DNA of 57,635 bases from Candidatus Phoenicimicrobium oleiphilum (GTDB taxonomy: Bacteria; Atribacterota; Phoenicimicrobiia; Phoenicimicrobiales; Phoenicimicrobiaceae), in contig JBDIWJ010000006.1 in NCBI GenBank assembly GCA_039638295.1, positions 1 through 57,635 on the forward strand. Direction: 5' to 3'. This document shows, one piece after another, positions 43,905-57,635 of this stretch. Position 1 is the first letter of the stretch. The number at the start of each line of letters is the position of its first letter. Under the pieces are notes generated by a model. It ran no database searches. It was not told the origin of the DNA and was given only the letters and a program-made list of their open reading frames with translations. The position numbers were made by a program, and so were the translations under genes.

Positions 43905-45878
43905 ATGAAGTTACTTTCACCAATTAAAATTGGTAATTTAGAAATTAAAAATAGAGTAGTTATGGCACCAATGACTTGCAATTTTGCTAAAGATGGGTTT
44001 ATTACTGAGCAGATGATTGATTTTTATGCAGAGCGAGCAAGAGGAGGAGTAGGTGTAATTACAGTCGAAGATGGTATAATTGATTTTCCCTTAGGAAATA
44101 ATGCCAAAAACCCTGTAGCCATTGATGATGATAAATATATACCTATGCTTAAAAAACTTAGTTCAGCTATAAAAAAACATGGTGCTAAAGCAGCGATTCA
44201 ACTGTCTCATGCGGGGAGAAGAGCAGGTCGTGTAACTTTAGAAAATGGCTATTTAGAAGTAACTCGTGGTCAAATACCAGTTGCACCTTCAATGATCGCC
44301 CATCCCTTCCCCGGACAAGTTACCCCCAGAGAGCTAAGCGAAGAAGAGATTGAAGAGATTATAGAAAAATTTGGCCAGGCGGCGAGGAGGGCAGTTGAGG
44401 CTGGATTTGATATTATAAGTATACATTGTGCCCATATGTATTTATGTGGTGAATTTTTATCCCCTTGGGCTAATAAACGAAAGGATAAGTATGGGGGGAG
44501 TTTAGAAAATCGTATGCGGTTTGTTTTAGAAATTATTAGAAAAGTAAAAAGTTTAGTAGGTTCAGACTTTCCTTTAGTTGCTCGTATGAATGGCCAGGAA
44601 CCTGAGGGTGGAAATTCACCTTTAGAGATTCGGGAAATTGCAAGAAGACTGCAATTAGCAGGAATTAAAGCTATTAGTGTTTCTACTGGGTTTGGGGCTG
44701 TTCTCCACGAAAAAAATTTTATTTCAGCAGAAGCACCGATAGGTACTCCCGAGGGATGCATTGTTAATTTAGCAGAAAATATTAAAATAGGAGTAACAAT
44801 ACCAGTAGCAGTAGGAAATAAAATTCGCCATCCAGAGTTTGCAGAAAATGTCTTGCAAAAAAATCAAGCAGATATGATTACTTTGGGTAGGCCTTTAATT
44901 ACTGACCCTTATTGGGTTCAAAAAGTTGCCGAAGGTAGATATCAGGATATTCGACCTTGTGTTTCCTGTTGTTATGGTTGTGTAGGAAATGTGCTTAAAG
45001 GTACACCAATTACCTGTATTTTAAACCCGTTAGCAGGAAAGGAAGGTAAAAAAGAATTTAGGTATGTACCCGTAAATAAGAGGGATGGAAAGAAAGTTTT
45101 AGTAATTGGTGGTGGTCCTGCAGGGCTACAAGCAGCTATTACCGCGGCGACTAGAGGACATAAAGTTACTCTATGGGAAAAGGAAAGAAAATTAGGTGGA
45201 ACAATTGTATTAGCTGCTAAGCCTCCCCGCAAACAAGAGTTAAATGAAATTGTTGATTATTTTAAAAATAGGATTAATCAATTAAATATACAGGTAGAAT
45301 TAGGAAAAGAAGTAAACGAAAAAATGATTAAAGAATTTAAAGCAGATGTGATTATTTTAGCCTCGGGTGGCAATAGGATTATACCAGATATTAAAGGAAT
45401 TAAGGGAAATAAGAATGTTTATTGGGCACTTGATTTACTCAAAAATGATTATACAGATATTGGGCAAGAAATAGTTATTGTTGGGGGAGGAGAAGTAGGA
45501 TTAGAAACTGCTGAATGGTTGGCGGAAAAAGGGAAAACGGTGACTGTTATTGAAATACTTCCTGAAGTGGCAAGAGATATGGTACACGCTGTTAAAGTTC
45601 CGCTAATGATAAGTTTAAAAGATTATGGGGTAAAGATATATACCAATACTCGTGTAAAGCAAATAAAGTCCGATGGTGTGATAATGGAAAGAAATGGGAT
45701 AGAAGAAACGATCAAGGCAGATGCAGTTGTTATTGCTGTGGGAGTGAAGGCTGAAGATAAATTGGAGAATAGATTAAGGGGTGCTGTATCAAAATTGTTC
45801 TGTGTGGGGGATTGCCAAAAACCTGGCAATATTATGGATGCGGTACATGAGGGATTTAAAATAGGATTACAAGTTTAA
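43905..45878 (+). CDS. NADH:flavin oxidoreductase, OYE family with 4Fe-4S and FAD domains (enoate/dienoyl-CoA reductase-like)
   Basis: NRVVMAPM, QLSHAGR, HCAHMYL, NKRKDKYGGS, CVSCCYGC...C, GGGPAG and GGGEVG. Confidence 0.9.
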   Translation: MKLLSPIKIGNLEIKNRVVMAPMTCNFAKDGFITEQMIDFYAERARGGVGVITVEDGIIDFPLGNNAKNPVAIDDDKYIPMLKKLSSAIKKHGAKAAIQLSHAGRRAGRVTLENGYLEVTRGQIPVAPSMIAHPFPGQVTPRELSEEEIEEIIEKFGQAARRAVEAGFDIISIHCAHMYLCGEFLSPWANKRKDKYGGSLENRMRFVLEIIRKVKSLVGSDFPLVARMNGQEPEGGNSPLEIREIARRLQLAGIKAISVSTGFGAVLHEKNFISAEAPIGTPEGCIVNLAENIKIGVTIPVAVGNKIRHPEFAENVLQKNQADMITLGRPLITDPYWVQKVAEGRYQDIRPCVSCCYGCVGNVLKGTPITCILNPLAGKEGKKEFRYVPVNKRDGKKVLVIGGGPAGLQAAITAATRGHKVTLWEKERKLGGTIVLAAKPPRKQELNEIVDYFKNRINQLNIQVELGKEVNEKMIKEFKADVIILASGGNRIIPDIKGIKGNKNVYWALDLLKNDYTDIGQEIVIVGGGEVGLETAEWLAEKGKTVTVIEILPEVARDMVHAVKVPLMISLKDYGVKIYTNTRVKQIKSDGVIMERNGIEETIKADAVVIAVGVKAEDKLENRLRGAVSKLFCVGDCQKPGNIMDAVHEGFKIGLQV

Positions 45879-45906
45879 ATTTTAATAAGATGGCGGTGAA
45901 AATAAT

Positions 45907-47895
45907 TTGAATATATTTAAAAAGAAGAAAAAAAATATTGATTTGCAAAGTGAAGAGGTAATCAAGAGGCCGCTTGCAGGCAACCTTAAGAAATTAGTAA
46001 CAGTTTTGGCTATCAGTCTTTCTTTATTTCAATTATATACGGCTGCTTTTGGTATTTATAAGACTGCCATTATTCATCGGGCGGCACATTTAATTTTTAT
46101 TTTAGTTTTGTTCTTCATAATTTATCCAATAAGCAAGAAAAATCATCAAAATAAAATAGGAGATATAATTGACTATCTTCTTGTCTTTATCTCCTTGTTT
46201 TCTGTTGGGTATATAGTATTTTTTTATGAAGCAGTAGCTAATAGAGTAATGAACCTGGAAAATTTAACAAAATTAGATAATTTTGTGGGGATTATTGTTA
46301 TATTATTAGTATTAGAGGCAAACAGGCGTTCAAATCGTACTTTCTTTTTTCTTATGCTCCTTGGTTTAGCGTATATGTTGTTTGGTCCATATTTTCCAGG
46401 ACTTTTTGCCCATCCAGGGATTTCTTGGGAACGATTAATCTATTTAATATCATATTCTTCAGAGGGAATTTTTGGTATTGGTTTAGCAGTATCTTCAACT
46501 TACCTATATATTTTTATATTGTTTGGCGTATTTTTGGGAAAGACTGGGGTAATAGATTTCTTTATCGATTTAGCCCTTTCATTAGTGGGTAAGTACTCAG
46601 GTGGGATGGCAAAGTCTTGCGTGATTAGTAGTTCTTTGATGGGGACTATAACAGGTAGTTCTCTTGGTAGCGCAGCAGCCGTAGGTTCCTTTACAATTCC
46701 GATGATGAAAAAAGAAGGATTTAAAAGCCATGTGGCTGCTGCAATAGAGGCAATTTCAGCCTGCGGGGGGCAATTAATGCCACCAGTTATGGGAGCAGCA
46801 GCTTTTATTATGGCTGAGATAATTGGGGTCCCATATGGGAAGATAGCTTTAGCTGGATTGATCCCGGCAGTTATATATTACATAAATGTCTTTTCAATAA
46901 TTCATTTTGAGTCACTTAGTAGTGGTATAAAAGGTCTAAATAAGAATAAATTACCAAAATTTAAAGATGTAGTTTTATCTTCAGGGTATTTATTATTACC
47001 TCTATTGGTATTAATTTATACATTGATGATCGCAGGTTATAGTGCTACAAAATCTGGTTTTATAGCCATAATTTGTTGTATTATAGTTACTTACTTTCGA
47101 AAGGAAAATCACTTTGGCTGGAAAAATTTCTTGCAAAGTTGTGAAGAAGGCGCTTATTCTGTTCTGAAAATTGCTATATTATGTGCAGGGATTGGCTTAA
47201 TTATTAGCTCGGTTACCTTAACTGGATTAGGTATGCGTTTTTCAAGTATTGCGATAGCCTTAGCTGGGGGGAATCTATTTTTACTATTATTTATTACGAT
47301 GATTATGAGTTTGATTTTAGGTATGGGTATGCCTACTCCTATTGTGTATTTATTAACAGCTATTTTTATTGCTCCTTCAATGATGCAATTGGGCGTTTCA
47401 GCATTTGCTGCACACTTTTTTGTCTTTTATTACGCTATATTATCGGGGTTAACGCCACCAGTTTGTTTGGTTGCGATTACAACTGCTGCCATAGCAAAAG
47501 CAGATTGGTTTAAGACAGGTTTAACAGCAACTCGTTTTGCTTTGGCTGTTTTTATTGCTCCGTATATATGGATTTTTAACCCTCAATTATTAATGGTGGG
47601 CAGTTGGTATGAAATATTATTGGTTTTCATGCTTGCAACAATGGGAGTTATTGCAATTGCAAGTAGCTTACAAGGGTGGTTTATAAACAAAACAAGCTGG
47701 ATAGAAAGAATAATTCTATTTATAGCCGGTCTTTTGGTAATGAATCTAAAAGGGGGGTGGTTAATGGTTATAAGCGGATTATTATTAGTATTCATTGTGG
47801 TGATTTACCAGTTAAAGAATATTAAATTTAAAATGAATGTTAGGGGGGATAAGAATAGGGAGTATAGTACACAAAATATAGAAGATTGTAATTAA
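45907..47895 (+). CDS. TAXI-TRAP transporter fused permease (4TM/12TM)
   Basis: GGQLMPPVMGAAAFIMA, LILGMGMPT and TPPV motifs; about 16 hydrophobic helices. Confidence 0.9.
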   Translation: MNIFKKKKKNIDLQSEEVIKRPLAGNLKKLVTVLAISLSLFQLYTAAFGIYKTAIIHRAAHLIFILVLFFIIYPISKKNHQNKIGDIIDYLLVFISLFSVGYIVFFYEAVANRVMNLENLTKLDNFVGIIVILLVLEANRRSNRTFFFLMLLGLAYMLFGPYFPGLFAHPGISWERLIYLISYSSEGIFGIGLAVSSTYLYIFILFGVFLGKTGVIDFFIDLALSLVGKYSGGMAKSCVISSSLMGTITGSSLGSAAAVGSFTIPMMKKEGFKSHVAAAIEAISACGGQLMPPVMGAAAFIMAEIIGVPYGKIALAGLIPAVIYYINVFSIIHFESLSSGIKGLNKNKLPKFKDVVLSSGYLLLPLLVLIYTLMIAGYSATKSGFIAIICCIIVTYFRKENHFGWKNFLQSCEEGAYSVLKIAILCAGIGLIISSVTLTGLGMRFSSIAIALAGGNLFLLLFITMIMSLILGMGMPTPIVYLLTAIFIAPSMMQLGVSAFAAHFFVFYYAILSGLTPPVCLVAITTAAIAKADWFKTGLTATRFALAVFIAPYIWIFNPQLLMVGSWYEILLVFMLATMGVIAIASSLQGWFINKTSWIERIILFIAGLLVMNLKGGWLMVISGLLLVFIVVIYQLKNIKFKMNVRGDKNREYSTQNIEDCN

Positions 47896-47981
47896 GTATT
47901 AAAATAAAAAAATGTTTAAATTGATAATATTTATTAAGTTTAACTACAGCAATTAATATTAATAAAAAAGAGGTATAAAAA

Positions 47982-48944
47982 ATGAAAATTAAAGTAAAAA
48001 TCTTAAAACCGTTTTTGATAGGCTTACTTTTTTTTACTATAGTAGCTTGTAGTTTTAATATTCAGGTAAAAGCTGAAGGTATTATGTGGACGTTAGGTAC
48101 ATCTGGTTCCGGATCTTCTCCTTATATTATGGGGGGGGTTTTTTCTGACGTAGCAAATAAACATTTAGACGGCTTGAAAATTTTCCCTCAAGTTACAGAA
48201 GGTTTTGAGGCGAATATAGGTTTAATCGCTAACCAAACAATACCTATTGCTGAAGCAAGTAATAATGTTGTAATTAAAGGTTATGCTAAATATCCTGATA
48301 TTCGGGGTTTATTCAACTTTCTAATGTGTCCCATACACATTTTAGTAAATGCTAAAGATAATTTTAATAGCATTGAAGATTTAAGGGGAAAGAGAATAAA
48401 TATAGGAGCTCCAGGCCAGTCTACCAGAGGGATTGCCACAGCTATGTTAGAAGCCTATGGGTTAGAATCTGGTGACTATAAAATATCATCTTTGAGTACC
48501 AAAGAATCTGCTGATGCTTTAAAAGATGGGCAAATCGATGCAGCTGTTATTATTGCCAATACACCAATGCCGAGCATTGCTTCGGTTGCGGTTACTAAAA
48601 GTATAGATTTATTGCCATTAGATGGACCAAATGCCGATAAGTTTAATGAGGCTATGGGATTCATAATGGCGCCTACCTCAATTCCTGCCGGCACTTATAA
48701 AGGTGTAGATAAAACTGTAAAAACATTAGCTTTCCCAATTATGATTATTGCCCATAAAGATTTAGACGTTGAACTTGTTTACCAATTTACTAAATCTGTT
48801 TGGGATAACTTAAATGAGCTAAAAGCGGCACACAATGGTTTTAATTCATTAGAGTTAGCCGGAAGTGCTATTGCGGGATGGGGAAATGTTCCTATACATC
48901 CCGGCGCAGAGAAATATTTCAAAGAAGTTGGAGTAATAAAATAA
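47982..48944 (+). CDS. TAXI-family TRAP substrate-binding protein
   Basis: Signal peptide; GTSGSGSS, DLRGKRINIG, ALKDGQIDA, IPAGTY and PIHPGAEKYFKE. Confidence 0.9.
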   Translation: MKIKVKILKPFLIGLLFFTIVACSFNIQVKAEGIMWTLGTSGSGSSPYIMGGVFSDVANKHLDGLKIFPQVTEGFEANIGLIANQTIPIAEASNNVVIKGYAKYPDIRGLFNFLMCPIHILVNAKDNFNSIEDLRGKRINIGAPGQSTRGIATAMLEAYGLESGDYKISSLSTKESADALKDGQIDAAVIIANTPMPSIASVAVTKSIDLLPLDGPNADKFNEAMGFIMAPTSIPAGTYKGVDKTVKTLAFPIMIIAHKDLDVELVYQFTKSVWDNLNELKAAHNGFNSLELAGSAIAGWGNVPIHPGAEKYFKEVGVIK

Positions 48945-49118: not shown

Positions 49119-49748
49119 ATGAAAATTGTAGGCATAGTATGCACACCGAGAGTCGGTGGAAATTCAGAGGTTTTAGTAAAACAAATTTTGGATGGGGCAA
49201 CAAAAGCCGGAGCAGAGAGCGAAGTTATCTTCGTTAGAGATAAAAAAATACAACTTTGCGATGGGTGCATGAAGTGTATAAAATCTGGAAAATGTCACTT
49301 AACTGATGATATGGAAGAGATTGGCGAAAAATTGGTAACTTCTGATGGCATAGTTATCGGAGTTCCTACTTATTGGACCATTGGTGGTATGGGGGTTGCT
49401 TTTTTGGATAGGTTGTTACCTTATACTGCTTCTGGAATACTATCTAACAAGGTAGGAGCAGGAATTGCAGTAGGTGCAAGAGTGGCGGTGGATACAGCAG
49501 TTGGGGTTTTGCGGCGCTTTTTCATATATTCTCATATGTTATGTGTCGAATGTGTTGCTCACTATGGTACTATACCCGGTGATGTAATTAAAAATGAATA
49601 TGCAATGAAATCTGTATGGGAAATAGGTCGTTTAATGGTATTATTTAAGGAGAATGGTAACAGATATCCGGAAGAATATTCAATTCCTCTATCTAATTAT
49701 GTTAAGAAAAAATACAGTGATGACATTTATCCTTATCATTCTTCCTAA
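49119..49748 (+). CDS. Iron-sulfur flavoprotein (Isf)-like flavodoxin-fold protein 1
   Basis: TPR..GNS, CxxCxxC-x5-C (CDGCMKCIKSGKC), DGIVIGVPTY and NKVGAGIAV. Confidence 0.82.
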   Translation: MKIVGIVCTPRVGGNSEVLVKQILDGATKAGAESEVIFVRDKKIQLCDGCMKCIKSGKCHLTDDMEEIGEKLVTSDGIVIGVPTYWTIGGMGVAFLDRLLPYTASGILSNKVGAGIAVGARVAVDTAVGVLRRFFIYSHMLCVECVAHYGTIPGDVIKNEYAMKSVWEIGRLMVLFKENGNRYPEEYSIPLSNYVKKKYSDDIYPYHSS

Positions 49749-49783: not shown

Positions 49784-50416
49784 ATGTCTATTAATGTTAT
49801 AGCTATTGCAGGTAGTCATCGTAAGAATAGTAACACAGAGTTAGCTTTACAGATTATGTCTAAAAGATTATCCAAGATTGATATTGAGACTGAAATAATA
49901 ACTCTGGCTAACAAAAAGATTGAACATTGTCGGGCCTGTGATAATTGTAAAAGAACAAGGAAATGTCCTATTAATGATAACCTTGTGGAAATTATGGAGA
50001 AGATGATAACTGCTCAGGGAATTATCTTGGCCTGCCCCATATATAGTTTTAATATCACCCCCTTAATGCAAGACTTAATAACCCGGGGTAACCGATATTT
50101 TCATATCCTAGCTAAATCTGTCATTAAAGATGATTTTAATAATCCCGGTTTTACCTATAAAAATATCCCATATTCAGCTTTAAAAGGTAAAGTAGGAGCA
50201 GCCATAACTGTTGCACGTCGGGCAGGAGGTGGTATGGCTTTGTGGAATTTGAATAATTTTATGTTGGTTAATGAGATGCAAGTTGTGGGCTCTTGTTATG
50301 AGAATACAATTTTTGGAAACGAAAGAGGAGCAATAATAAAAGATATTGAGGGGATGAATAATCTTTATAGATTAACTGATAACTTTGGAATACTTTTGAA
50401 AAGATTATTTAGTTAA
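49784..50416 (+). CDS. Iron-sulfur flavoprotein (Isf)-like flavodoxin-fold protein 2
   Basis: GSHRKNSNT, CRACDNCKRTRKC, GIILACPIY and GKVGAAITVARRAGG. Confidence 0.82.
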   Translation: MSINVIAIAGSHRKNSNTELALQIMSKRLSKIDIETEIITLANKKIEHCRACDNCKRTRKCPINDNLVEIMEKMITAQGIILACPIYSFNITPLMQDLITRGNRYFHILAKSVIKDDFNNPGFTYKNIPYSALKGKVGAAITVARRAGGGMALWNLNNFMLVNEMQVVGSCYENTIFGNERGAIIKDIEGMNNLYRLTDNFGILLKRLFS

Positions 50417-50596: not shown

Positions 50597-51358
50597 ATGA
50601 CTGAAAAAAGGAAAAATATTAATATAAGGCGAGTAGCGCAAGTATTAAAATGTTTTACTCAAAAACCAAATGGCTGGGGGATAACTGAACTTGCCTCTCA
50701 TTTAGGATTAGCAAAAAGTGTAATTTTTGAAATTTTAAATACCTTATGTGAAGAAGGTTTACTAGAAAAAGACAAAGATAAAAAAATATATCTTTGTGGA
50801 GATGAACTATTAAAACTTGCCTTAGCCCATTATGGTAATGTAGATTTAGTCAAAGTTAGTAGGCCAGTATTAAAAAACTTAGCTAAAGAAGTAGGAGAAA
50901 CAGTAATATTATCTCAAATAATTGATAATAGAAATATAATTATAGAAAAAGTTGATGGACCACAACCCCTCCGTTTTACCTTAGATATTGGGACAGAATT
51001 GCCGTTAGATAAAGGATCTTCAGCAAGGATATTTTTAGCTTTTTTACCAGATGAGAAGAAAAAAGAGGTAATAGATAAATATAAAATAGATATGAGCAAA
51101 TTAAAAGAGGAGTTGGAAATAGTAAGAAAGAGAGGATTTGCCATCAGCAAAGAAGAAGTGTATCCTGGGGTAAATGCTATATCTGTTCCAATCTTAAATA
51201 ATTATAATGAATTAGTAGCAGTCCTGGGTGTAGGTGGGCCGAACATTCGTTATAATAAAGAAAATGAACAAGGTAAATATAAATTAATATCAAAAATATT
51301 AGCTGCTGGTGAAAAAATTTCTGCCCAAATAGGGTTTTTAAAGTGGGAATGGTCGTAA
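50597..51358 (+). CDS. IclR-family transcriptional regulator
   Basis: GITELASHLGLAKS..F.IL.TL HTH, GETV, and RKRGFAIS.EE...G..AISVPI effector domain. Confidence 0.92.
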   Translation: MTEKRKNINIRRVAQVLKCFTQKPNGWGITELASHLGLAKSVIFEILNTLCEEGLLEKDKDKKIYLCGDELLKLALAHYGNVDLVKVSRPVLKNLAKEVGETVILSQIIDNRNIIIEKVDGPQPLRFTLDIGTELPLDKGSSARIFLAFLPDEKKKEVIDKYKIDMSKLKEELEIVRKRGFAISKEEVYPGVNAISVPILNNYNELVAVLGVGGPNIRYNKENEQGKYKLISKILAAGEKISAQIGFLKWEWS

Positions 51359-51576: not shown

Positions 51577-52515
51577 ATGCTTAAAATTCCTTTAATTACT
51601 GAAATACAGAGGTACTGTGCTAATGATGGTCCCGGAATAAGAACCGTAATATTTTTTAAAGGTTGTAGTCTAAATTGCCCCTGGTGTCATAATCCTGAAT
51701 GCAAATCCCCAAAAGTAGATATTTACTACCATGAAGATAAGTGCCAACATTGTGGAAGGTGTATTGAAAATTGTCCTCAAGGAGCAATAAGTTGGAGGTC
51801 CCCCAAAAAAGAAGCTATTTTAATAGATAAAGAAAAATGTAATAAATGTCTAAAGTGTGTCGAAGGCTGTCCGTTTAAAGCCTTAGAAAAAGTAGGACAA
51901 GCTTTGGCTTTTGAGCAAATTGTTGATGAAGCACTAAGAGACAAACCTTTTTATGAAACCTCAAATGGCGGAGTCACCCTAAGCGGGGGCGATCCTTTAT
52001 TCTTCCCGGAATTTAGCCTTAAATTATTAAAGAAATTCAAAGCCGAAATGATCCATACCGCAGTAGAAACTTCTGGGTATAGTAAATGGGAAATTTTAAA
52101 GGAAATAACGAAATATACAGATTTATTCTTGTATGACCTAAAGTGTATGGATTCAATTAAACATAAAGATGTTATCGGGGTAGATAACAGACTGATTTTA
52201 GATAATCTAAAAAGATTGTCCGCTCTAAAAGCAAATATCAGGATTAGAGTCCCGGTTATTCCCAGATTTAATGATAATAAAGAAAATTTTAGTCTGATGG
52301 TTGATTATCTTCAAGCCCTTCAAAATCCGACAATAGCAGTCGATCTTTTGCCTTTCCACAATTCTGCAGAGAAGAAATACACCCAATTAGGTTTAAATTA
52401 TATCTATAGAGGTGAACCATTTATGGAAAAGGAACAGGTAGAGTGGATTGAGAATTTTTTGGAAAAGAATAATATTACCACTACTATTGGTGGGCTTATT
52501 GGCGTCGAAAAGTAA
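51577..52515 (+). CDS. Glycyl-radical enzyme activating enzyme (BssD-like radical SAM protein with ferredoxin insert)
   Basis: KIPLITEIQRY..NDGPGIRT, CxxxCxxC (CSLNCPWC), two CxxCxxCxxxC motifs, GVTLSGGDP and a BssD-like C-terminus TTIGGLIG. Confidence 0.93.
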   Translation: MLKIPLITEIQRYCANDGPGIRTVIFFKGCSLNCPWCHNPECKSPKVDIYYHEDKCQHCGRCIENCPQGAISWRSPKKEAILIDKEKCNKCLKCVEGCPFKALEKVGQALAFEQIVDEALRDKPFYETSNGGVTLSGGDPLFFPEFSLKLLKKFKAEMIHTAVETSGYSKWEILKEITKYTDLFLYDLKCMDSIKHKDVIGVDNRLILDNLKRLSALKANIRIRVPVIPRFNDNKENFSLMVDYLQALQNPTIAVDLLPFHNSAEKKYTQLGLNYIYRGEPFMEKEQVEWIENFLEKNNITTTIGGLIGVEK

Positions 52516-52551: not shown

Positions 52552-52725
52552 ATGGCTGTTTGCAAAGAATGTAAAAATTTTAAACCATTAAAACAGAGTG
52601 ATTTGGATTATGCGAAAGGTAAAGGTGATTGTTTTTTACCTCAACAGGATGAAAAATGCAAATATTGGACAGCAAAACCAGTTAAGGAAGATATGACAGC
52701 ATGTGATAGATTTGAGAAAAAGTGA
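52552..52725 (+). CDS. Fumarate-adding enzyme gamma subunit (BssC-like, 57 aa; not in the ORF track)
   Basis: Strong SD AAGGAGGTG. MAVCKECKNFKPLKQSDLDYAKGKGDCFLPQQDEKCKYWTAKPVKEDMTACDRFEKK matches the BssC pattern CxxC..F.P....DY..GK.DC....DEK.KYW..KP.......C..F. Confidence 0.88.
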   Translation: MAVCKECKNFKPLKQSDLDYAKGKGDCFLPQQDEKCKYWTAKPVKEDMTACDRFEKK

Positions 52726-52777: not shown

Positions 52778-55249
52778 ATGAAAAATATCACAGAAAAAGA
52801 TAAACAAGATGAATTGATTAAACCGATGACTGAGCGAGCAAGAAAATTAAAAGATACTCTCTGGTGGAAGCATACCAGAGGAGGAGAATACGTCGAAAAG
52901 GGAGTTAAGGCAGGAATAGAAAGAGCCAGATATATGACCCAATCTTTTAAAGAGACCGATGGTGAAGAGTGGGTAATAAGAAGAGCGAAAGCCCTGGCTA
53001 ATGTGTTAGATAATATGACTATCTTTATAAAGGACCACGAGCTGTTAGTGGGTGATCATGCTGAGAAGCCCAACCTTATGCCCATCTATCAGGAAAGTAA
53101 CTATTTTTTAAATATTGATTTATTAAATAGTCCATATTGTCCTGATGAAAAAGAAGAATTTAGAGAAATTGCAGAATGGTGGAAGCCCCATACTATTCAA
53201 ACTAAAGCGGAAAAATATATCGACGAAGAGGAAAAAGAACTTCAGAGCGCTAATGCATCAATGGAATCCCCGGGCTATTTGACTGGTTATTCAAGTCCTA
53301 CTCCTTCTTACGAAAGTGTATTCGAAGATGGTTTAGAAGGTAGAATTGAGCGTATAGAGAAAAAACTAAAAGAAGCCCAAGATGAATTTCTACACCAAAA
53401 TCCCTGGAATGGACCGGAAGCTATGACTTTGCCCAAAAAGATGGATGAGTGGAAGGCAATGTTAATTGCCGATAAAGCCGTAATAAGATGGGCAAAAAGG
53501 TATGCCAGGTTAGCAAGATATATGGCTGAAGAAGAGAAAAATCCCAAAAGAAAAGAAGAACTTTTGATGATTGCTGATATATGTGACCATGTACCGGCAA
53601 AACCCTGTCGGGGTTTTAGAGATGCAGTGCAAGCCCAATGGTTTACCTATCTGATTGTTCAATCTTTAGAGCGTTATGGAAGTGGGATGTCCTGCAAGAT
53701 GGATACAATGTGGTGGCCCTATTATAAGAGAAGTGTTATAGATAAGGCAGAACAACCTATGACCAGAGAAGAAGCAGTAGAGCTGGTAGTTTTGCATAGA
53801 TTAAAAGTTTCAGAACATGGAGTTATAAAGAGTAGATTGTATAGGGAAATTCATGCTGGGGCAAACGACCTCTTTATTATTACTATCGGAGGCGTAGAAC
53901 CAGATGGCAGTAATGGTTGCAACGAGTTAACTAATGTTATATTAGAAGCAGCAGCAACTGCGATGACTACTGAGCCATCATTAGGACTTAGATGGCACGA
54001 AAATATGCCTGAGCTAACTGCTCGTTATGCCTATGAATGTATAAAAAGAGGACTGGGTTTCCCCTCAATTAAAAATGATGAAGTTGCAATCAATTCACTA
54101 GTACAGGGTTTTGGAAGTGGCACGCTTTCCATACAAGATGCCAGGAGATGGGCTTTGTGTTTATGTATGTCTCCGGGACCAACAGGAAGACATGGTGGTT
54201 TGAGAACGAGGTGGGCTTGTTCCTCTTATACTGGAAAGTGTCTAGAATTAGCTCTAAGTGATGGTTATGATTATTCTTACACCGATATGCAATTAGGACC
54301 AAAGACCGGAGATCCTACTAAGTTTAAAACCTTTGATGATTTACTGCAGGCTTACAAAATTCAATACCAATATGTTCATTCGGCAATTACCAGGTCCAGA
54401 GATCTAACCAGATATTTAGAAGCAAAGTTCTACCAATCTCCATTTTTATCCAGTCTTGATGATGAGTGTGTGGAGAGAGGTCTCGATGGTATTGAATGGG
54501 ACGAATTCTGTAATCCTTGGTTTAACGTAATGGATGATGTGGTAGTAGCAGACTCCTTAGCTGCGGTAAAAAAATTGGTCTTTGAAGAGAAGAAATATAC
54601 TATGGAACAGTTAGTAAAGGCTCTTCGGGCAAATTGGGAAGGTTATGAAGAGATGAGATTGGACTTTTGGAATGCGCCAAAATGGGGGAATGATGATGAT
54701 TACGTAGACGATGTAACAAAAAATTTATTTAGATATCATTCCCTTGAACTTCAACAGAATACCAATCTTTTTGGAGCTCATCCCAAACCACTTCCCCAAC
54801 ATGTAGCAATATATTGGACTTTAGGACCAAGGATTGGAGCAACTCCTAATGGAAGGAGACATGGAGAGGTATTAGATGATGGAGGAAGCTCACCATATAT
54901 TGGTTGTGACAAAAAGGGACCAACCGCGGTTTTAAATTCCTGCGCAAAGATCGACTATAGCTTGCAAAAGGGTTGTCTACTTAATCAAAAGTTAGATCAT
55001 AATGTGATGAACAGCGATAAAGGTTTTCCATTATGGTTTGCCTATATGAAAACCTGGCACAAGCTGGGTATAGATCATGTACAGTTTAACGTATGTGACC
55101 ATGAACAATTGAGAGATGCTCAAAAGCATCCGGAGAAATATCCGGATTTGATTGTTAGAGTTGCCGGTTATAGTGCAAGATTTATAGACCTTTCAGTATA
55201 TGCTCAAGATACTATCATTGCTCGGACAGAACAAGAATTAGCCGGATAA
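52778..55249 (+). CDS. Fumarate-adding glycyl-radical enzyme alpha subunit (BssA-like, divergent)
   Basis: Cys loop LCMSPG (Cys463), Gly loop RVAGYSA (Gly797), YREI..G.NDLF, IDHVQFN and IIARTEQ; flanked by an activase and small Cys-rich subunits. Confidence 0.9.
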   Translation: MKNITEKDKQDELIKPMTERARKLKDTLWWKHTRGGEYVEKGVKAGIERARYMTQSFKETDGEEWVIRRAKALANVLDNMTIFIKDHELLVGDHAEKPNLMPIYQESNYFLNIDLLNSPYCPDEKEEFREIAEWWKPHTIQTKAEKYIDEEEKELQSANASMESPGYLTGYSSPTPSYESVFEDGLEGRIERIEKKLKEAQDEFLHQNPWNGPEAMTLPKKMDEWKAMLIADKAVIRWAKRYARLARYMAEEEKNPKRKEELLMIADICDHVPAKPCRGFRDAVQAQWFTYLIVQSLERYGSGMSCKMDTMWWPYYKRSVIDKAEQPMTREEAVELVVLHRLKVSEHGVIKSRLYREIHAGANDLFIITIGGVEPDGSNGCNELTNVILEAAATAMTTEPSLGLRWHENMPELTARYAYECIKRGLGFPSIKNDEVAINSLVQGFGSGTLSIQDARRWALCLCMSPGPTGRHGGLRTRWACSSYTGKCLELALSDGYDYSYTDMQLGPKTGDPTKFKTFDDLLQAYKIQYQYVHSAITRSRDLTRYLEAKFYQSPFLSSLDDECVERGLDGIEWDEFCNPWFNVMDDVVVADSLAAVKKLVFEEKKYTMEQLVKALRANWEGYEEMRLDFWNAPKWGNDDDYVDDVTKNLFRYHSLELQQNTNLFGAHPKPLPQHVAIYWTLGPRIGATPNGRRHGEVLDDGGSSPYIGCDKKGPTAVLNSCAKIDYSLQKGCLLNQKLDHNVMNSDKGFPLWFAYMKTWHKLGIDHVQFNVCDHEQLRDAQKHPEKYPDLIVRVAGYSARFIDLSVYAQDTIIARTEQELAG

Positions 55250-55366: not shown

Positions 55367-55585
55367 ATGGAAAATAAAGAGAAAACTTGTAAAGATTGTA
55401 AATATTTTATGGTTGCACCTACGAATCCTTTTAAAGGAACTTGCACAGTAAATAGAAAGAAATTACCAGATACCCAAGCTACCTCAACATTTATTCCTGG
55501 CAAGTTAATCAAAGGAGATAATCCGAAATGTGATAAGTTTGAGCCATCTAGCGGCTGGGAAGATAATATTACACAGACACTTTAA
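55367..55585 (+). CDS. Fumarate-adding enzyme beta subunit (BssB-like, 72 aa)
   Basis: SD GGAGG. CKDCKY...PTNP.KG.CT.NR...C..F matches the BssB pattern CxxCK....PT.P..G.CT.NR. Confidence 0.82.
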   Translation: MENKEKTCKDCKYFMVAPTNPFKGTCTVNRKKLPDTQATSTFIPGKLIKGDNPKCDKFEPSSGWEDNITQTL

Positions 55586-55625: not shown

Positions 55626-55805
55626 ATGGAAAATATATTTGATAAAATGGTTTGTAAAGATTGTGATTTATTTCAACCAGACGTTGAAGATAAGGAGAAG
55701 GGATATTGTTGGAAAATAATGTCTGTGAAGGATAAGAAAGTTGTTTCTGCAAATGATGGATGCCCATCATTCCGTCCCAAAATAGATTTTTTTGCTAAAA
55801 AATGA
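55626..55805 (+). CDS. Third small 4-Cys protein of the BssB/BssC type (59 aa; not in the ORF track)
   Basis: SD-like AAGGAAAGGGG. MENIFDKMVCKDCDLFQPDVEDKEKGYCWKIMSVKDKKVVSANDGCPSFRPKIDFFAKK shares CxxC..F...(K)G.C...C..F spacing with the two neighbouring subunits. Confidence 0.75.
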   Translation: MENIFDKMVCKDCDLFQPDVEDKEKGYCWKIMSVKDKKVVSANDGCPSFRPKIDFFAKK

Positions 55806-55809
55806 ACTA

Positions 55810-56038
55810 TAATTTTGTAGATGGTGCTCAGGGGGACTGCTCGAATTCTAGCGGTGCTGCCGTAATTAGCCGAATACTCAAATATACTTAAGACGTTCTT
55901 TATATATCTGTATAGTTTTTAGGTACTTATCTAATAAATCACTTGAAAATGGGTATATAAAAAATAAAAAAAGGGGGTGGTAAATTAGTTAATTATCAAA
56001 TATTGTTAATTTGTTAAGTAAAACAACATAGTGATTAA
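55810..56038 (+). repeat. Direct repeat copy 1: cyclase 3'-end remnant plus downstream leader
   Basis: 55810-55867 is almost identical to 57081-57137 (one extra G, one substitution); 55934-56038 is similar to 57226-57337. Confidence 0.88.
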
Positions 56039-56232: not shown

Positions 56233-57135
56233 ATGAGAATGAGGAAGATAATAACAAGCGGTTTGATATGCATGCTAATATGCCTTCTTATAATAGGCGT
56301 AGCTTTATGTACCTCTTCAGAAGCAAATTGGACGATAAAGTTAGGGGCTACGAATGTTATTGATTTGAGCTATCCACTTTACAAAAATAATGAAGGTATG
56401 AGCATGTCCGATGTTTATATTCCTCTCGATATTCGTGATGAGATTACATTGGGTAGTAAGACCATCCCTTTCCCCGCAACTGTAGATGACAATGGTTATC
56501 CAGTAAATGGTTTCTATGCTAGGGAGATATATGGAATGCTTGAAGGGCATGGTACGCATGTTGAGGCTTCTTCTCATGGTTTTGGAGAGCTTGGTCGTAA
56601 TATTGACGACTATCCTTTATCACGTTTTATCGGTCCTGCCGTGGTTATAAATATTGAAGCTAAAGCAGTAAAAAACCCAGATTATGAGATAACGGTTGAA
56701 GATCTTCGTGTGTGGGAGAAGAAATATGGGAAGATACCTGATGGTGCTTGCGTTATACTTTTCTCTGGAAGGGGTAAATATTGGGGAGACAAAGAAACTT
56801 ATTTTGGTATGGATGCAGAAGGGAAGGCCCATTACCCTGGTTTTTCAATAGAGGCGGCTAAATTTCTTGTGAAGGATCGACACATTAGTATGATGGCTAC
56901 AGATTGCCCGACAGCTGAAAGCGCTCTTCAAAAGAGGACTATCAAGACAGAGCGTGCGTTTGGATCAGCTCCTGTACGTGATATAGTGCAGTGTCCCCCC
57001 AATGATGTGATCATAATTGAGTATTTAGCTAATGTTGAGAAGCTTCCTGAAAGCGGGGCACTTATTATCGCCGCTCCAATTAATTTTGTAGATGGTGCTC
57101 AGGGGACTGCTCGAATTCTAGCGGTGCTGCCTTAA
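56233..57135 (+). CDS. Exported cyclase-family metal-dependent hydrolase (kynurenine formamidase / isatin hydrolase-like)
   Basis: Hydrophobic signal peptide; IDLSYP, variant motif EGHGTHVEASSH, IGPAVVI, HYPGFS.EAA.FL, IIEYLAN and ARILA. Confidence 0.82.
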   Translation: MRMRKIITSGLICMLICLLIIGVALCTSSEANWTIKLGATNVIDLSYPLYKNNEGMSMSDVYIPLDIRDEITLGSKTIPFPATVDDNGYPVNGFYAREIYGMLEGHGTHVEASSHGFGELGRNIDDYPLSRFIGPAVVINIEAKAVKNPDYEITVEDLRVWEKKYGKIPDGACVILFSGRGKYWGDKETYFGMDAEGKAHYPGFSIEAAKFLVKDRHISMMATDCPTAESALQKRTIKTERAFGSAPVRDIVQCPPNDVIIIEYLANVEKLPESGALIIAAPINFVDGAQGTARILAVLP

Positions 57136-57337
57136 TTTCCTAACAACCGCCAAGACCACTAAATAATAATTTAATATAATTAGGAGTTTATTTATATACC
57201 TACATAATTGTTAGATATTTTGGTGATAAATTACTTGATAGTGGGTGTATAAAAAAATAAAAGAAAAAAAGGGGGTTGGTAAATTGGTCAATTATCAAAT
57301 ATTGTTAATTTGTTAAGTAAAACAGCATAGTGATTAA
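57081..57337 (+). repeat. Direct repeat copy 2
   Basis: Pairs with 55810-56038. Confidence 0.88.
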
Positions 57338-57392: not shown

Positions 57393-57635
57393 ATGATAAA
57401 AGTAAAAAAAATTAGTATTGTTTCTGTTTTAGTATTAGCTATTTGTCTTTTAGTTGGATCGGCTTTTGCTTTTGCTGCTGACAAGGTATATACCATAAGA
57501 TTTGCTCATGGTTTACCTGGTACTCATCATGTAGCTATAGAATATGCTAATTGGGCGAAGATGATAAAAGAAGAATCCAACGGGCGATTAAATGTGAAAA
57601 TATACCCAGGAGGACAGCTTTATACTGATACAAAC
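57393..57635 (+). CDS. TRAP transporter DctP substrate-binding protein, 3'-partial (not in the ORF track)
   Basis: SD AAGGAGG; signal peptide followed by IRFAH...H....WAKMIKEESNGRLNVKIYPGGQL, a typical DctP N-terminus; open to the window edge. Confidence 0.85.
   Translation, partial: MIKVKKISIVSVLVLAICLLVGSAFAFAADKVYTIRFAHGLPGTHHVAIEYANWAKMIKEESNGRLNVKIYPGGQLYTDTN

Follow-up and report, generated by a model that had tools for sequence, protein, structure and literature searches.

The stretch of DNA analyzed here (the window) is the whole 57,635-nucleotide contig JBDIWJ010000006.1 of Candidatus Phoenicimicrobium oleiphilum, which carries near its right-hand end an operon for a glycyl radical enzyme of the X-succinate synthase (XSS) family. 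We focused on the alpha subunit of this enzyme. An initial annotation, made from the letters of the sequence, had noted a set of active-site motifs between positions 53230 and 54830 and had read them as a radical, fumarate-using enzyme with a more polar co-substrate pocket. This interval lies inside an open reading frame (ORF) encoding 823 aa, for which Pfam returned matches to PFL-like (E 5.7e-156) and Gly_radical (E 3.7e-31); in an NCBIfam scan of the protein, no model scored at or above its own cut-off. When ranked against the PDB, the protein scored 898 bits with benzylsuccinate synthase (BSS), 574 bits with (1-methylalkyl)succinate synthase (MASS), and at most 374 bits with dehydratases. 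The likeness to the BSS alpha subunit (TutD/BssA of Thauera aromatica T1; 4PKC, 4PKF, 5BWD, 5BWE) is one of homology, not chance, and the phmmer alignment to chain 4pkc_A is gapless over the motifs given below except for a 2-residue deletion after Arg478. All motifs of the initial annotation were found at the residues it gave, and the BssA strings that it had compared were all present in this alignment, paired as it had assumed. The gene and its motifs, with the BSS residues to which they align in literature numbering, are:

52778..55249, forward strand: XSS alpha subunit, 823 aa (4pkc_A, E 3.5e-269; 9o8u_A, E 5.2e-171)
53264..53296, forward strand: Glu163-x7-Tyr171-x-Ser173 (ESPGYLTGYSS, residues 163-173), aligned to BSS Glu189/Tyr197/Ser199
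53852..53854, forward strand: His359 in YREIHAGANDL (355-365), aligned to BSS Phe385, a toluene contact; Ile358 and Leu365 align to Ile384 and Leu391
54158..54178, forward strand: thiyl loop C461-L462-C463-M-S-P-G, with Cys463 the catalytic Cys; Leu462 and Cys463 align to BSS Leu492 and Cys493
54209..54229, forward strand: Arg478 followed by W479-A480-C481-S-S-Y (WACSSY, 479-484), aligned to BSS Arg508 and the Gly loop; Trp479, Ala480 and Cys481 align to Gly511, Gly512 and Gly513
54518..54541, forward strand: W581-F-N583-V-M585-D586-D587-V588 (in NPWFNVMDDV, 579-588), aligned to BSS W613-H-N615-P-I617-T618-T619-I620
54797..54811, forward strand: Q674-H675-V676-A677-I678 (with PQHV, 673-676), aligned to BSS Q707-A708-V709-G710-L711
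55157..55174, forward strand: glycyl radical motif R-V-A-G797-Y-S (794-799; Pfam Gly_radical, E 3.7e-31)

The sequence features that mark an XSS alpha subunit were all present, namely the glycyl radical motif, the thiyl loop, the fumarate-binding Arg, the accompanying small subunits and the placement in the tree. The loop L462-C463-M-S-P-G is of the XSS type, and the C-x-E base of eliminases is absent. Arg478 lies at +15 from Cys463, aligns to Arg in both 4pkc_A and 9o8u_A, and is invariant in a 49-row alignment. The motif RVAGYS is identical in all 15 rows that cover it among the close relatives of the protein (hereafter the clade; conservation was counted in 16 distinct rows, and each denominator is the number of rows covering that position). 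With both Cys463 and Gly797 in place, the earlier claim that the radical machinery is kept was supported. An AlphaFold2 model of alpha, built from the 49-row alignment, had a mean predicted local distance difference test score (pLDDT) of 92 and a predicted template-modeling score (pTM) of 0.92. It matched BSS alpha (4pkf_A) with a template-modeling (TM) score of 0.96, a root-mean-square deviation of 1.7 Å and 49% identity, and the second-best structural match was MASS alpha (9o8u_A; TM 0.92, 36% identity). Because the model matches BSS alpha at TM 0.96, the map from BSS residues to alpha is reliable at the level of sequence position.

To compare active sites, we used 17 BSS positions named as contacts in passages of published text, a list that is possibly incomplete. 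Thirteen are Glu189, Tyr197, Ser199, Ile384, Leu391, Leu492, Cys493, Arg508, Val709, Trp613, Gln707, Asn615, and Leu711 (PMC4848970), and a second set names Ile617, Phe385, Gly512, Gly513, Ser199, Asn615, Gln707, and Arg508 (PMC12358834). In the literature numbering the catalytic residues of BSS are Cys493 and Gly829 (PMC13298812); the index of chain 4pkc_A is one lower, with Cys at 492 and Gly at 828. In the phmmer alignments, alpha is the same as BSS at 12 of the 17 positions and the same as MASS at 6. The residues shared with BSS are the equivalents of Arg508, Trp613, Asn615, Gln707, Ser199, Glu189, Tyr197, Ile384, Leu391, Leu492, and Val709 together with the radical loops, and the five that differ are Phe385 (His in alpha), Gly512 (Ala), Gly513 (Cys), Ile617 (Met), and Leu711 (Ile). 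Alpha further departs from BSS in Ile620 (Val), Ala708 (His), Thr618/Thr619 (Asp/Asp), and in the exchange of Gly511-Gly513 for Trp-Ala-Cys with the 2-residue deletion.

The positions that surround the hydrocarbon show the same trend. Five of the eight are identical to BSS, two are conservative replacements (Met585 and Ile678), and one is polar (His359). Within the toluene shell proper (Ile384, Phe385, Leu391, Leu492, Ile617, Val709, Leu711), four of seven residues are identical (Ile358, Leu365, Leu462, and Val676), which sets the protein apart from BSS sensu stricto. MASS has Gly, Leu, Thr, and Ala where alpha has Ile358, His359, Leu365, and Leu462; the residues aligned to Ile358, Leu365, and Leu462 are thus smaller in MASS, whose hydrocarbon cavity is described as larger and elongated (PMC12358834). 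The side-chain ligands of fumarate are likewise of the BSS type, with Gln674 and Asn583 standing where MASS has Glu690 and Thr598; Met585 of alpha corresponds to MASS Phe600. Of the polar co-substrate pocket proposed in the initial annotation, one invariant residue, His359, was upheld, and the broad polarity was not, as only one of the eight hydrocarbon-pocket positions is polar. A polar substrate is possible, but the case for it comes down to this residue plus putative second-shell changes. The better-supported statement is that the pocket appears compact and BSS-like, not MASS-like, and would fit poorly with the published long-alkane role.

The replacement of Phe385 by His359 was borne out, with His aligned to Phe385 of 4pkc_A and found in all 15 clade rows. 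The 99 other XSS rows (the aromatic-type group of the tree described below) have at this position Phe in 69, Gln in 17, Leu in 10, and Ala, Thr, and His in one each. All three rows with Asp at the Glu189 position have Gln here. Asp189 is given as a mark of naphthylmethylsuccinate synthase (Nms) and Gln at the same position as a mark of 4-hydroxybenzylsuccinate synthase (Hbs) (PMC12583861, citing Funk 2015), and the latter enzyme takes the polar substrate p-cresol (PMC6776118, PMC12583861). Limonenylsuccinate synthase has His606 at the Ile617 position, and a His there is likewise reported for Nms (PMC12583861). In our alignment, no His was found at the Ile617 position in the rows taken as Nms, and Desulfosarcina-type rows do have one; our labels Nms-like and Hbs-like are assigned from signature residues. 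Enzymes for pure hydrocarbons therefore carry Gln or His in the pocket, and the assumption that such residues speak against a hydrocarbon did not hold. Because hydrocarbon-specific relatives have Gln or His, and because the Hbs-like clade (Gln at 189, one row being Desulfobacula sp.) shows only a few polar changes relative to BSS, a single pocket His is compatible with either a hydrocarbon or a polar substrate.

The Hbs-like clade (about 808 aa; Desulfobacula and relatives) is also the nearest clade by identity, at 54-56%, and its label draws on the Gln at position 189 and on a single source name, 'Desulfobacula sp.', rather than on a characterized sequence. It shares with alpha an Ala at the Pro386 and Ser388 positions. 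However, its Glu189 position is occupied by Gln and its Phe385 position by Phe, and it carries a Gly-Gly loop, whereas alpha has Glu163 (Glu in 14 of 14 clade rows, so that the Hbs signature is absent), His359, and no such loop. The two clades are not sisters in our tree.

The placement of Asp586 and Asp587 in the pocket, as in the initial annotation, was not supported. In the model, residues 581-585 form a strand and 587-603 a helix, and the two Asp residues stand at the helix start. Position 586 is Asp in 15 of 15 clade rows and is Thr (36), Gly (33), Ser (14), or Ala (5) among the 99 other rows; position 587 varies within the clade (Asp 7, Glu 7, Asn 1). Thr, Gly, Ser, Ala, and Asp are the usual helix-capping residues. 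His675 is invariant in the clade (13/13) at a position that is Ser in 42, Ala in 42, and Thr in 14 of the other rows. Because BSS Gln707, Val709, and Leu711 all contact ligands in an alternating pattern, the sequence suggests that His675 faces away from the ligands if the strand alternates. In the published passages searched, whose contact lists are possibly incomplete, Thr618, Thr619, Ala708, and Ile620 are not named as contacts. We also considered that His359, Asp586, and His675 might build a 2-His-1-carboxylate metal site and set this aside as a low-odds idea, since the proximity of the three residues is unsupported and His675 likely points outward. Cys461, the extra Cys of the CLC motif that had been singled out as notable, was dropped as a functional feature, since 10 of the 15 clade rows have Ala there and only 5 have Cys.

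No single change near the site is larger than one in the stretch after Arg478, where Trp479 stands for a Gly that is otherwise universal. Here, S-E-G511-G512-G513-S-I-F of BSS is replaced by a stretch that is 2 residues shorter. The initial annotation had counted this Gly-rich loop as part of the toluene pocket; the available text instead describes Gly512 and Gly513 as fumarate contacts, their backbone NH groups bonding fumarate in BSS (PMC12358834). Following the Arg, MASS has R-M-A-S-A-T-M and alpha R-W-A-C-S-S-Y, both lacking the BSS Gly loop, and MASS was solved with fumarate bound despite the absence of these loop contacts (9o8u; PMC12358834). Distant XSS-like rows have x-Ala or x-Ser after the Arg. 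From these rows, the Gly loop seems to characterize the aromatic-type crown group, and the loop-less state looks older. For the fumarate site, then, the earlier claim stood in part: Arg478, Trp581, Asn583, Gln674, and Ser173 are kept, and the Gly512/Gly513 loop is replaced.

Conservation within the clade points to a remodeled surround of the active site. Trp479-Ala480 is found in 15 of 15 clade rows, against Gly in 99/99 and 98/99 of the other rows; Met585 is present in 14 of 15 rows, Glu163 and Ser173 in 14 of 14 each, and Tyr171 in 11 of 14, the remaining 3 having His. We found 41 of 823 positions that are invariant in a nine-row clade of close relatives and present in at most 2% of the 99 other rows. 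Six of these (174, 359, 479, 480, 586, and 675) are literature contacts or immediate neighbors of one, giving 6 of 39 such positions compared with 35 of 784 elsewhere (one-sided Fisher p 0.010, a post hoc and uncorrected value). The active-site shell thus appears to have been remodeled in the clade; the test is silent on polarity.

Some near-universal residues are also replaced throughout the clade: Trp29 (52862-52864; Arg in 96 of 99 other rows), Val338 and His340 (53789-53797; Glu in 97 and 99), Arg476 (54203-54205; Lys in 99), and Lys738 (54989-54991; Arg in 99). These residues may relate to subunit contacts.

A protein search returned 177 proteins at E<=1e-50 among 7999 scored candidates, with nine close relatives at 81-92% identity and then a drop to 56%. 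In the species-genome collection, the close relatives were only the metagenome-assembled genomes (MAGs) of Candidatus Atribacteria bacterium UBA6251, UBA4082, and UBA6794 (89-92%). We built a FastTree phylogeny of 112 rows, comprising all hits of at least 760 aa, in which the nine-row clade (support 100) is sister to a 99-row group of all aromatic-type XSS (support 100), leaving three long-branch rows and one alkylsuccinate synthase (ASS)-like row outside. FastTree is prone to joining long branches, and we take the tree only as agreeing with published trees, as it does with those described in the passages of PMC6776118 and PMC11227167.

A scan of the phylum found a match at E<=1e-150 in 5 of 86 species genomes, four of which (the genome studied here included) are at 89-100% identity and spread over two families. 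The fifth match (G076:C315:4903-7320, locus L014) is a 39%-identical XSS-like frame outside the clade with one in-frame TAA. Alpha is 89-92% identical between the two families (genomes G035, G063, and G074, loci L011-L013, versus the window). Between the window and locus L002, identities of neighboring proteins are 61% for the IclR regulator, 71% for the DUF1015 protein, 75% for the FMN reductases, and 80% for the activase. This contrast points either to very strong constraint on alpha or to lateral transfer inside the phylum that is more recent than the 'vertical inheritance' of PMC11227167 would imply. The same genome encodes a second glycyl radical enzyme (C12:34139-37386, locus L005), a 796-aa frame of 36% identity to alpha with an adjoining activase.

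Alpha is a further member of the faeA clade published for Atribacteria (JS1/Phoenicimicrobiia), as judged by 89-92% identity to the named MAGs and by faeDCAB/DctPQM synteny. Liu et al. 2019 (ISME J, PMC6776118) name UBA6251 (printed 'UBA625,1'), UBA4082, and UBA6794 as faeA carriers, describe a faeDCAB order with DctPQM inserted, and place faeA as a deep monophyletic branch among assA, bssA, nmsA, and hbsA. In the passages of that paper, faeA is about 55% identical to a Desulfobacula gene, which is taken as a hint of a different substrate specificity, and short-chain n-alkanes are proposed as substrates. The proposal was later widened to C16-C30 alkanes from enrichment transcripts (Microbiome 2024, PMC11227167), and 'Atribacterial AssA' is used as a reference label in a figure legend of PMC10766756. 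Our protein has the same clade, the same order of activase, gamma, alpha, and beta with DctPQM, and the same deep position, and differs from Atribacteria FaeA in nothing of kind. The term 'active site' does not occur in the main-text passages of PMC6776118 and PMC11227167, and a literature search on Atribacteria fumarate-adding enzymes together with that term returned only PMC10766756, where it stands in a reference title in the passages available. The most useful new point is that the active site appears BSS-like rather than MASS-like, which would be a poor fit with a long-alkane role.

Around alpha lie the following genes of the operon, preceded by two FMN_red-family genes upstream of it:

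49119..49748 and 49784..50416, forward strand: two tandem FMN_red-family genes, Cys-rich and iron-sulfur-flavoprotein-like (Pfam 3.1e-20 and 1.8e-23)
50597..51358, forward strand: IclR-family regulator at the operon head (IclR_C 4.6e-32, HTH_IclR 4.3e-13)
51577..52515, forward strand: glycyl-radical activase, a radical S-adenosylmethionine (SAM) protein with a ferredoxin-like di-cluster insert (TIGR02494 1.4e-106, above cut-off)
52552..52725, forward strand: gamma subunit, BssC/TutF-like, 57 aa (PF08201 BssC_TutF 3.6e-17, 1-56 of 56)
55367..55585, forward strand: beta subunit, BssB/TutG-like, 72 aa, with Cys8, 11, 26, and 55 (PF18512 1.6e-07; 4pkf_B E 0.0058)
55626..55805, forward strand: second beta-like Cys protein, 59 aa, C-x2-C-x14-C...C (after beta in 7 of 7 loci)
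57393..57635, forward strand: 5' part of a gene for a solute-binding protein of DctP-type tripartite ATP-independent periplasmic (TRAP) transporters, cut by the contig end
C50:1431-10272 of the same genome, reverse strand: rest of the operon, with the remainder of DctP, DctQ, DctM, a BssE-like AAA ATPase, a 669-aa protein, DUF4125, a PNPOx-like protein, and FumA/FumB
L001:12798-12983, L002:10427-10615, L003:5172-5360, L006:5106-5294, L007:4092-4283, and L010:689-877: the extra small protein at other loci

The operon runs off the end of the window at DctP and resumes on contig C50 of the same genome. With tblastn, DctP of locus L002 matched positions 57399-57629 at 58% identity over 77 aa. The order downstream of the small subunits is identical in all five loci that reach that far (L002, L003, L006, L007, and the C50 contig), and the 669-aa protein has no Pfam match. 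The fumarase is a two-subunit class I enzyme (alpha and beta) inside the operon. The best solved relatives of DctP are DctP-family binders, several of them annotated for C4-dicarboxylates (4ovs_A, E 1.5e-32). Because DctP resembles C4-dicarboxylate binders and a fumarase lies in the operon, the transporter can be explained by fumarate supply, and DctPQM plus fumarase inside the operon fit fumarate as the acceptor.

Upstream, the activase also matches Pfam Radical_SAM and Fer4, and scored 319.5 bits against TIGR04003 rSAM_BssD, below its cut-off of 496. The IclR gene precedes the activase in L001, L002, L003, L006, and L008 as well. FMN_red genes occur at the same place in L001 and L002 (both) and in L008 (one), and their products may supply electrons to the activase. 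The gamma gene is kept in 7 of 7 other loci covering its place (L001-L003 and L006-L009) and the beta gene in 6 of 6. Near-identical sequence was found in metagenomes of 11 studies, mostly from oil fields, crude oil, or oil production facilities. In two studies, RNA libraries also yielded contigs that cover, at 99% or more, the genes for the FMN reductase, the regulator, the activase, gamma, and alpha. This hints at transcription but does not prove it, because such libraries can contain DNA.

The extra small protein is 59-63 aa across loci, with all four Cys invariant. Its likeness to high-potential iron-sulfur proteins is weak (Pfam E 0.002, below cut-off; PDB 8z82_a, E 0.0041), and it is not mentioned in the passages of Liu 2019 searched (PMC6776118). 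When we modeled this protein together with alpha as two chains only, the complex scored 0.74 (runs 0.77, 0.74, and 0.73), compared with 0.00 for the best control; in the calibration of the method, 116 of 157 solved complexes and 2 of 215 mismatched pairs attained the mark that it passed. The runs share at least 96% of contacts, the partner has a pLDDT of at least 82, and the predicted interface on alpha spans 505-536 and 645-660. Clade-specific residues are not significantly enriched in this interface (3 of 31, p 0.20). From the model, the 59-aa protein may be a fourth subunit, and the pass may instead reflect its likeness to the solved small subunits of BSS and MASS, with the protein placed in the beta or gamma site.

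In its gene content, the system thus shares with BSS the beta and gamma subunits and bssE/F/G-like accessory genes. Unlike BSS, it has the extra beta-like protein and carries DctPQM and fumarase inside the operon, and the genome has no bbs-type CoA-transferase. With MASS alpha (MasD; 9O8U) it has in common the fold, the lack of the Gly512/Gly513 loop, the R-x-A-S-like stretch, and more than two small subunits. However, the delta subunit of MASS is rubredoxin-like (PMC12358834, in the passages available), whereas the extra protein here has beta-type C-x2-C-x14-C spacing.

Two neighboring sets of genes were considered and rejected as pathway clues. The PF04199 cyclase gene (56233..57135, forward strand), from a family that includes kynurenine formamidase and isatin hydrolase, could have hinted at an N-heterocycle; it lies between the small-subunit genes and DctP in this genome only, and all 6 other loci that span the interval from beta to DctP lack it. 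Public contigs break at its flanks, at about 55991-56025 and 57295-57319, and contig depth over the segment is below that of its surroundings (44 versus 72 in X2, 40 versus 57 in X1). The segment resembles a variable insertion that only some members of the population carry. The second set (43905..48944, forward strand) encodes an OYE/BaiCD-like Fe-S flavoenzyme of 657 aa, a fused TRAP permease, and a TAXI solute-binding protein, and sits between the DUF1015 gene and the FMN reductase genes. It is present in the window and in L001 and missing from L002, which has at that place a 323-aa gene on the opposite strand.

We propose that the ORF encodes the alpha subunit of a fumarate-adding XSS (Fae) with a compact, BSS-like pocket that includes His359 and that, judging from these residues, it probably acts on a toluene-sized or smaller substrate and not on long n-alkanes. 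In this mechanism, the radical-SAM activase would activate alpha, and Gly797 would carry the radical and pass it to Cys463. The Cys463 thiyl would then take a hydrogen from a C-H bond of the co-substrate, and the resulting carbon radical would add to the double bond of fumarate. Fumarate would be held by Arg478, Gln674, Asn583, Ser173, and the amides of the Cys loop, and the TRAP transporter and fumarase encoded in the operon would supply it. The co-substrate would be an alkylbenzene-like hydrocarbon or a ring with one hydrogen-bonding atom. What the data show directly is the homology, the residue conservation, the operon content, and near-identical sequence in RNA libraries; the chemistry, the use of fumarate, the pocket size, and the substrate class follow from these by inference. 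The initial interpretation as a whole was partly supported: it fared well for the radical and fumarate chemistry, to which homology and operon both point, and its broad polarity reduces to one invariant His plus putative second-shell changes.

A clearly polar or charged co-substrate such as a cresol, methylpyridine, methylindole, or toluate, bound by His359 together with Asp586, Asp587, and His675, is a contender that we regard as doubtful. In its favor, His359, Asp586, and His675 are clade-invariant and almost absent from the 99 other rows, clade-specific changes cluster beside active-site residues, the nearest clade bears the Gln mark of the polar-substrate Hbs (as far as the literature passages describe it), and an IclR regulator with TRAP transporters would suit a soluble effector or substrate. 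However, a single one of the eight pocket positions is polar, the two Asp residues sit where a strand passes into a helix and where Thr, Gly, or Ser is found in relatives, 587 is not fixed, and His675, between the ligand-contacting Gln674 and Val676, would face away. Glu163 is kept where the p-cresol enzyme has Gln, hydrocarbon-specific relatives also place Gln or His in the pocket, and the DctP likeness and the fumarase account for the transporter. It is very unlikely that the acceptor was modified instead, with the radical added to a non-fumarate alkene such as a substituted or mono-carboxylic one. In favor of such a change, all 15 clade rows lack the near-universal Gly at the positions of Trp479 and Ala480, in a loop whose Gly512 and Gly513 bond fumarate through their backbone NH groups in BSS (PMC12358834, in the passages available). 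A second point for it is that homologues of two-subunit class I fumarase can use further C4/C5 dicarboxylates. Against it, Arg478, Gln674, Asn583, Ser173, Trp581, and the Cys loop are all kept, and fumarase and a DctP-type transporter stand in the operon at five of five loci. The missing Gly loop is a weak argument for another acceptor because MASS binds fumarate without it (9o8u) and distant XSS-like rows, probably in the older state, share its loss.

The published assignment, in which this 'atribacterial AssA' is an alkylsuccinate synthase for n-alkanes, whether short chains (Liu 2019) or C16-C30 (Microbiome 2024), seems to us rather unlikely, although several points weigh for it and against the compact-pocket reading that we prefer. 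MAGs bearing the operon were obtained from oil reservoirs and from enrichments that degrade alkanes, and fae transcripts were reported in enrichments amended with hexadecane, eicosane, or triacontane (PMC6776118, PMC11227167, in the passages available). Our search also placed the gene in oil-field metagenomes from several studies. The same papers report mcm as present and bbs as absent, which Liu 2019 took as pointing to alkanes over aromatics (PMC6776118). The genome studied here, 91% complete, agrees: family III CoA-transferase (PF02515, which includes BbsEF), expected for BSS-type degradation, gave 0 matches, which in an incomplete genome does not prove absence, and methylmalonyl-CoA mutase (PF01642) gave 1 (E 6.8e-239), a gene that is common and not pathway-specific; one acyl-CoA dehydrogenase is present. 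The stretch R-W-A-C-S-S-Y resembles that of MASS. Within alpha itself, clade-specific invariants fall on only 2 of the 17 literature contacts (p 0.21, no enrichment), and the Trp479 loop is the least confident part of the model core (block 471-480, pLDDT 69), where Trp in place of Gly511 could reshape either site. The RNA-library contigs, one of which is 11.8 kb, may include DNA carry-over. What argues against the alkane assignment is the active site. The 17 contacts agree with MASS at half as many positions as with BSS, and Gln674 and Asn583 replace the MASS Glu and Thr. Ile358, Leu365, and Leu462 are kept where the smaller MASS residues go with an elongated cavity. In the tree, the sister group consists of aromatic-type enzymes and not of the ASS-like row. 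Furthermore, the transcript link is correlative, given an oily-sludge inoculum and expression of 'almost all genes' of the MAG (PMC11227167, in the passages available). A short alkane such as propane or butane would still fit the small pocket.

Lastly, the enzyme could form a separate functional class, a four-protein complex in which a shell of His359, Trp479, Asp586, and His675 would select a small heteroatom-bearing substrate and not any alkane, for instance a methyl-N-heterocycle or a cresol-type compound from crude oil. From its sequence we judge this unlikely. If it were true, these abundant oil-reservoir bacteria would not be the alkane fermenters that the literature describes. JS1 Atribacterota are among the commonest uncultured bacteria of oil reservoirs, and FaeA is the sole basis of their proposed role as alkane degraders. 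Should a structure or an assay bear out the BSS-like site, the published substrate assignment would need revisiting, together with the models of carbon flow that build on it.

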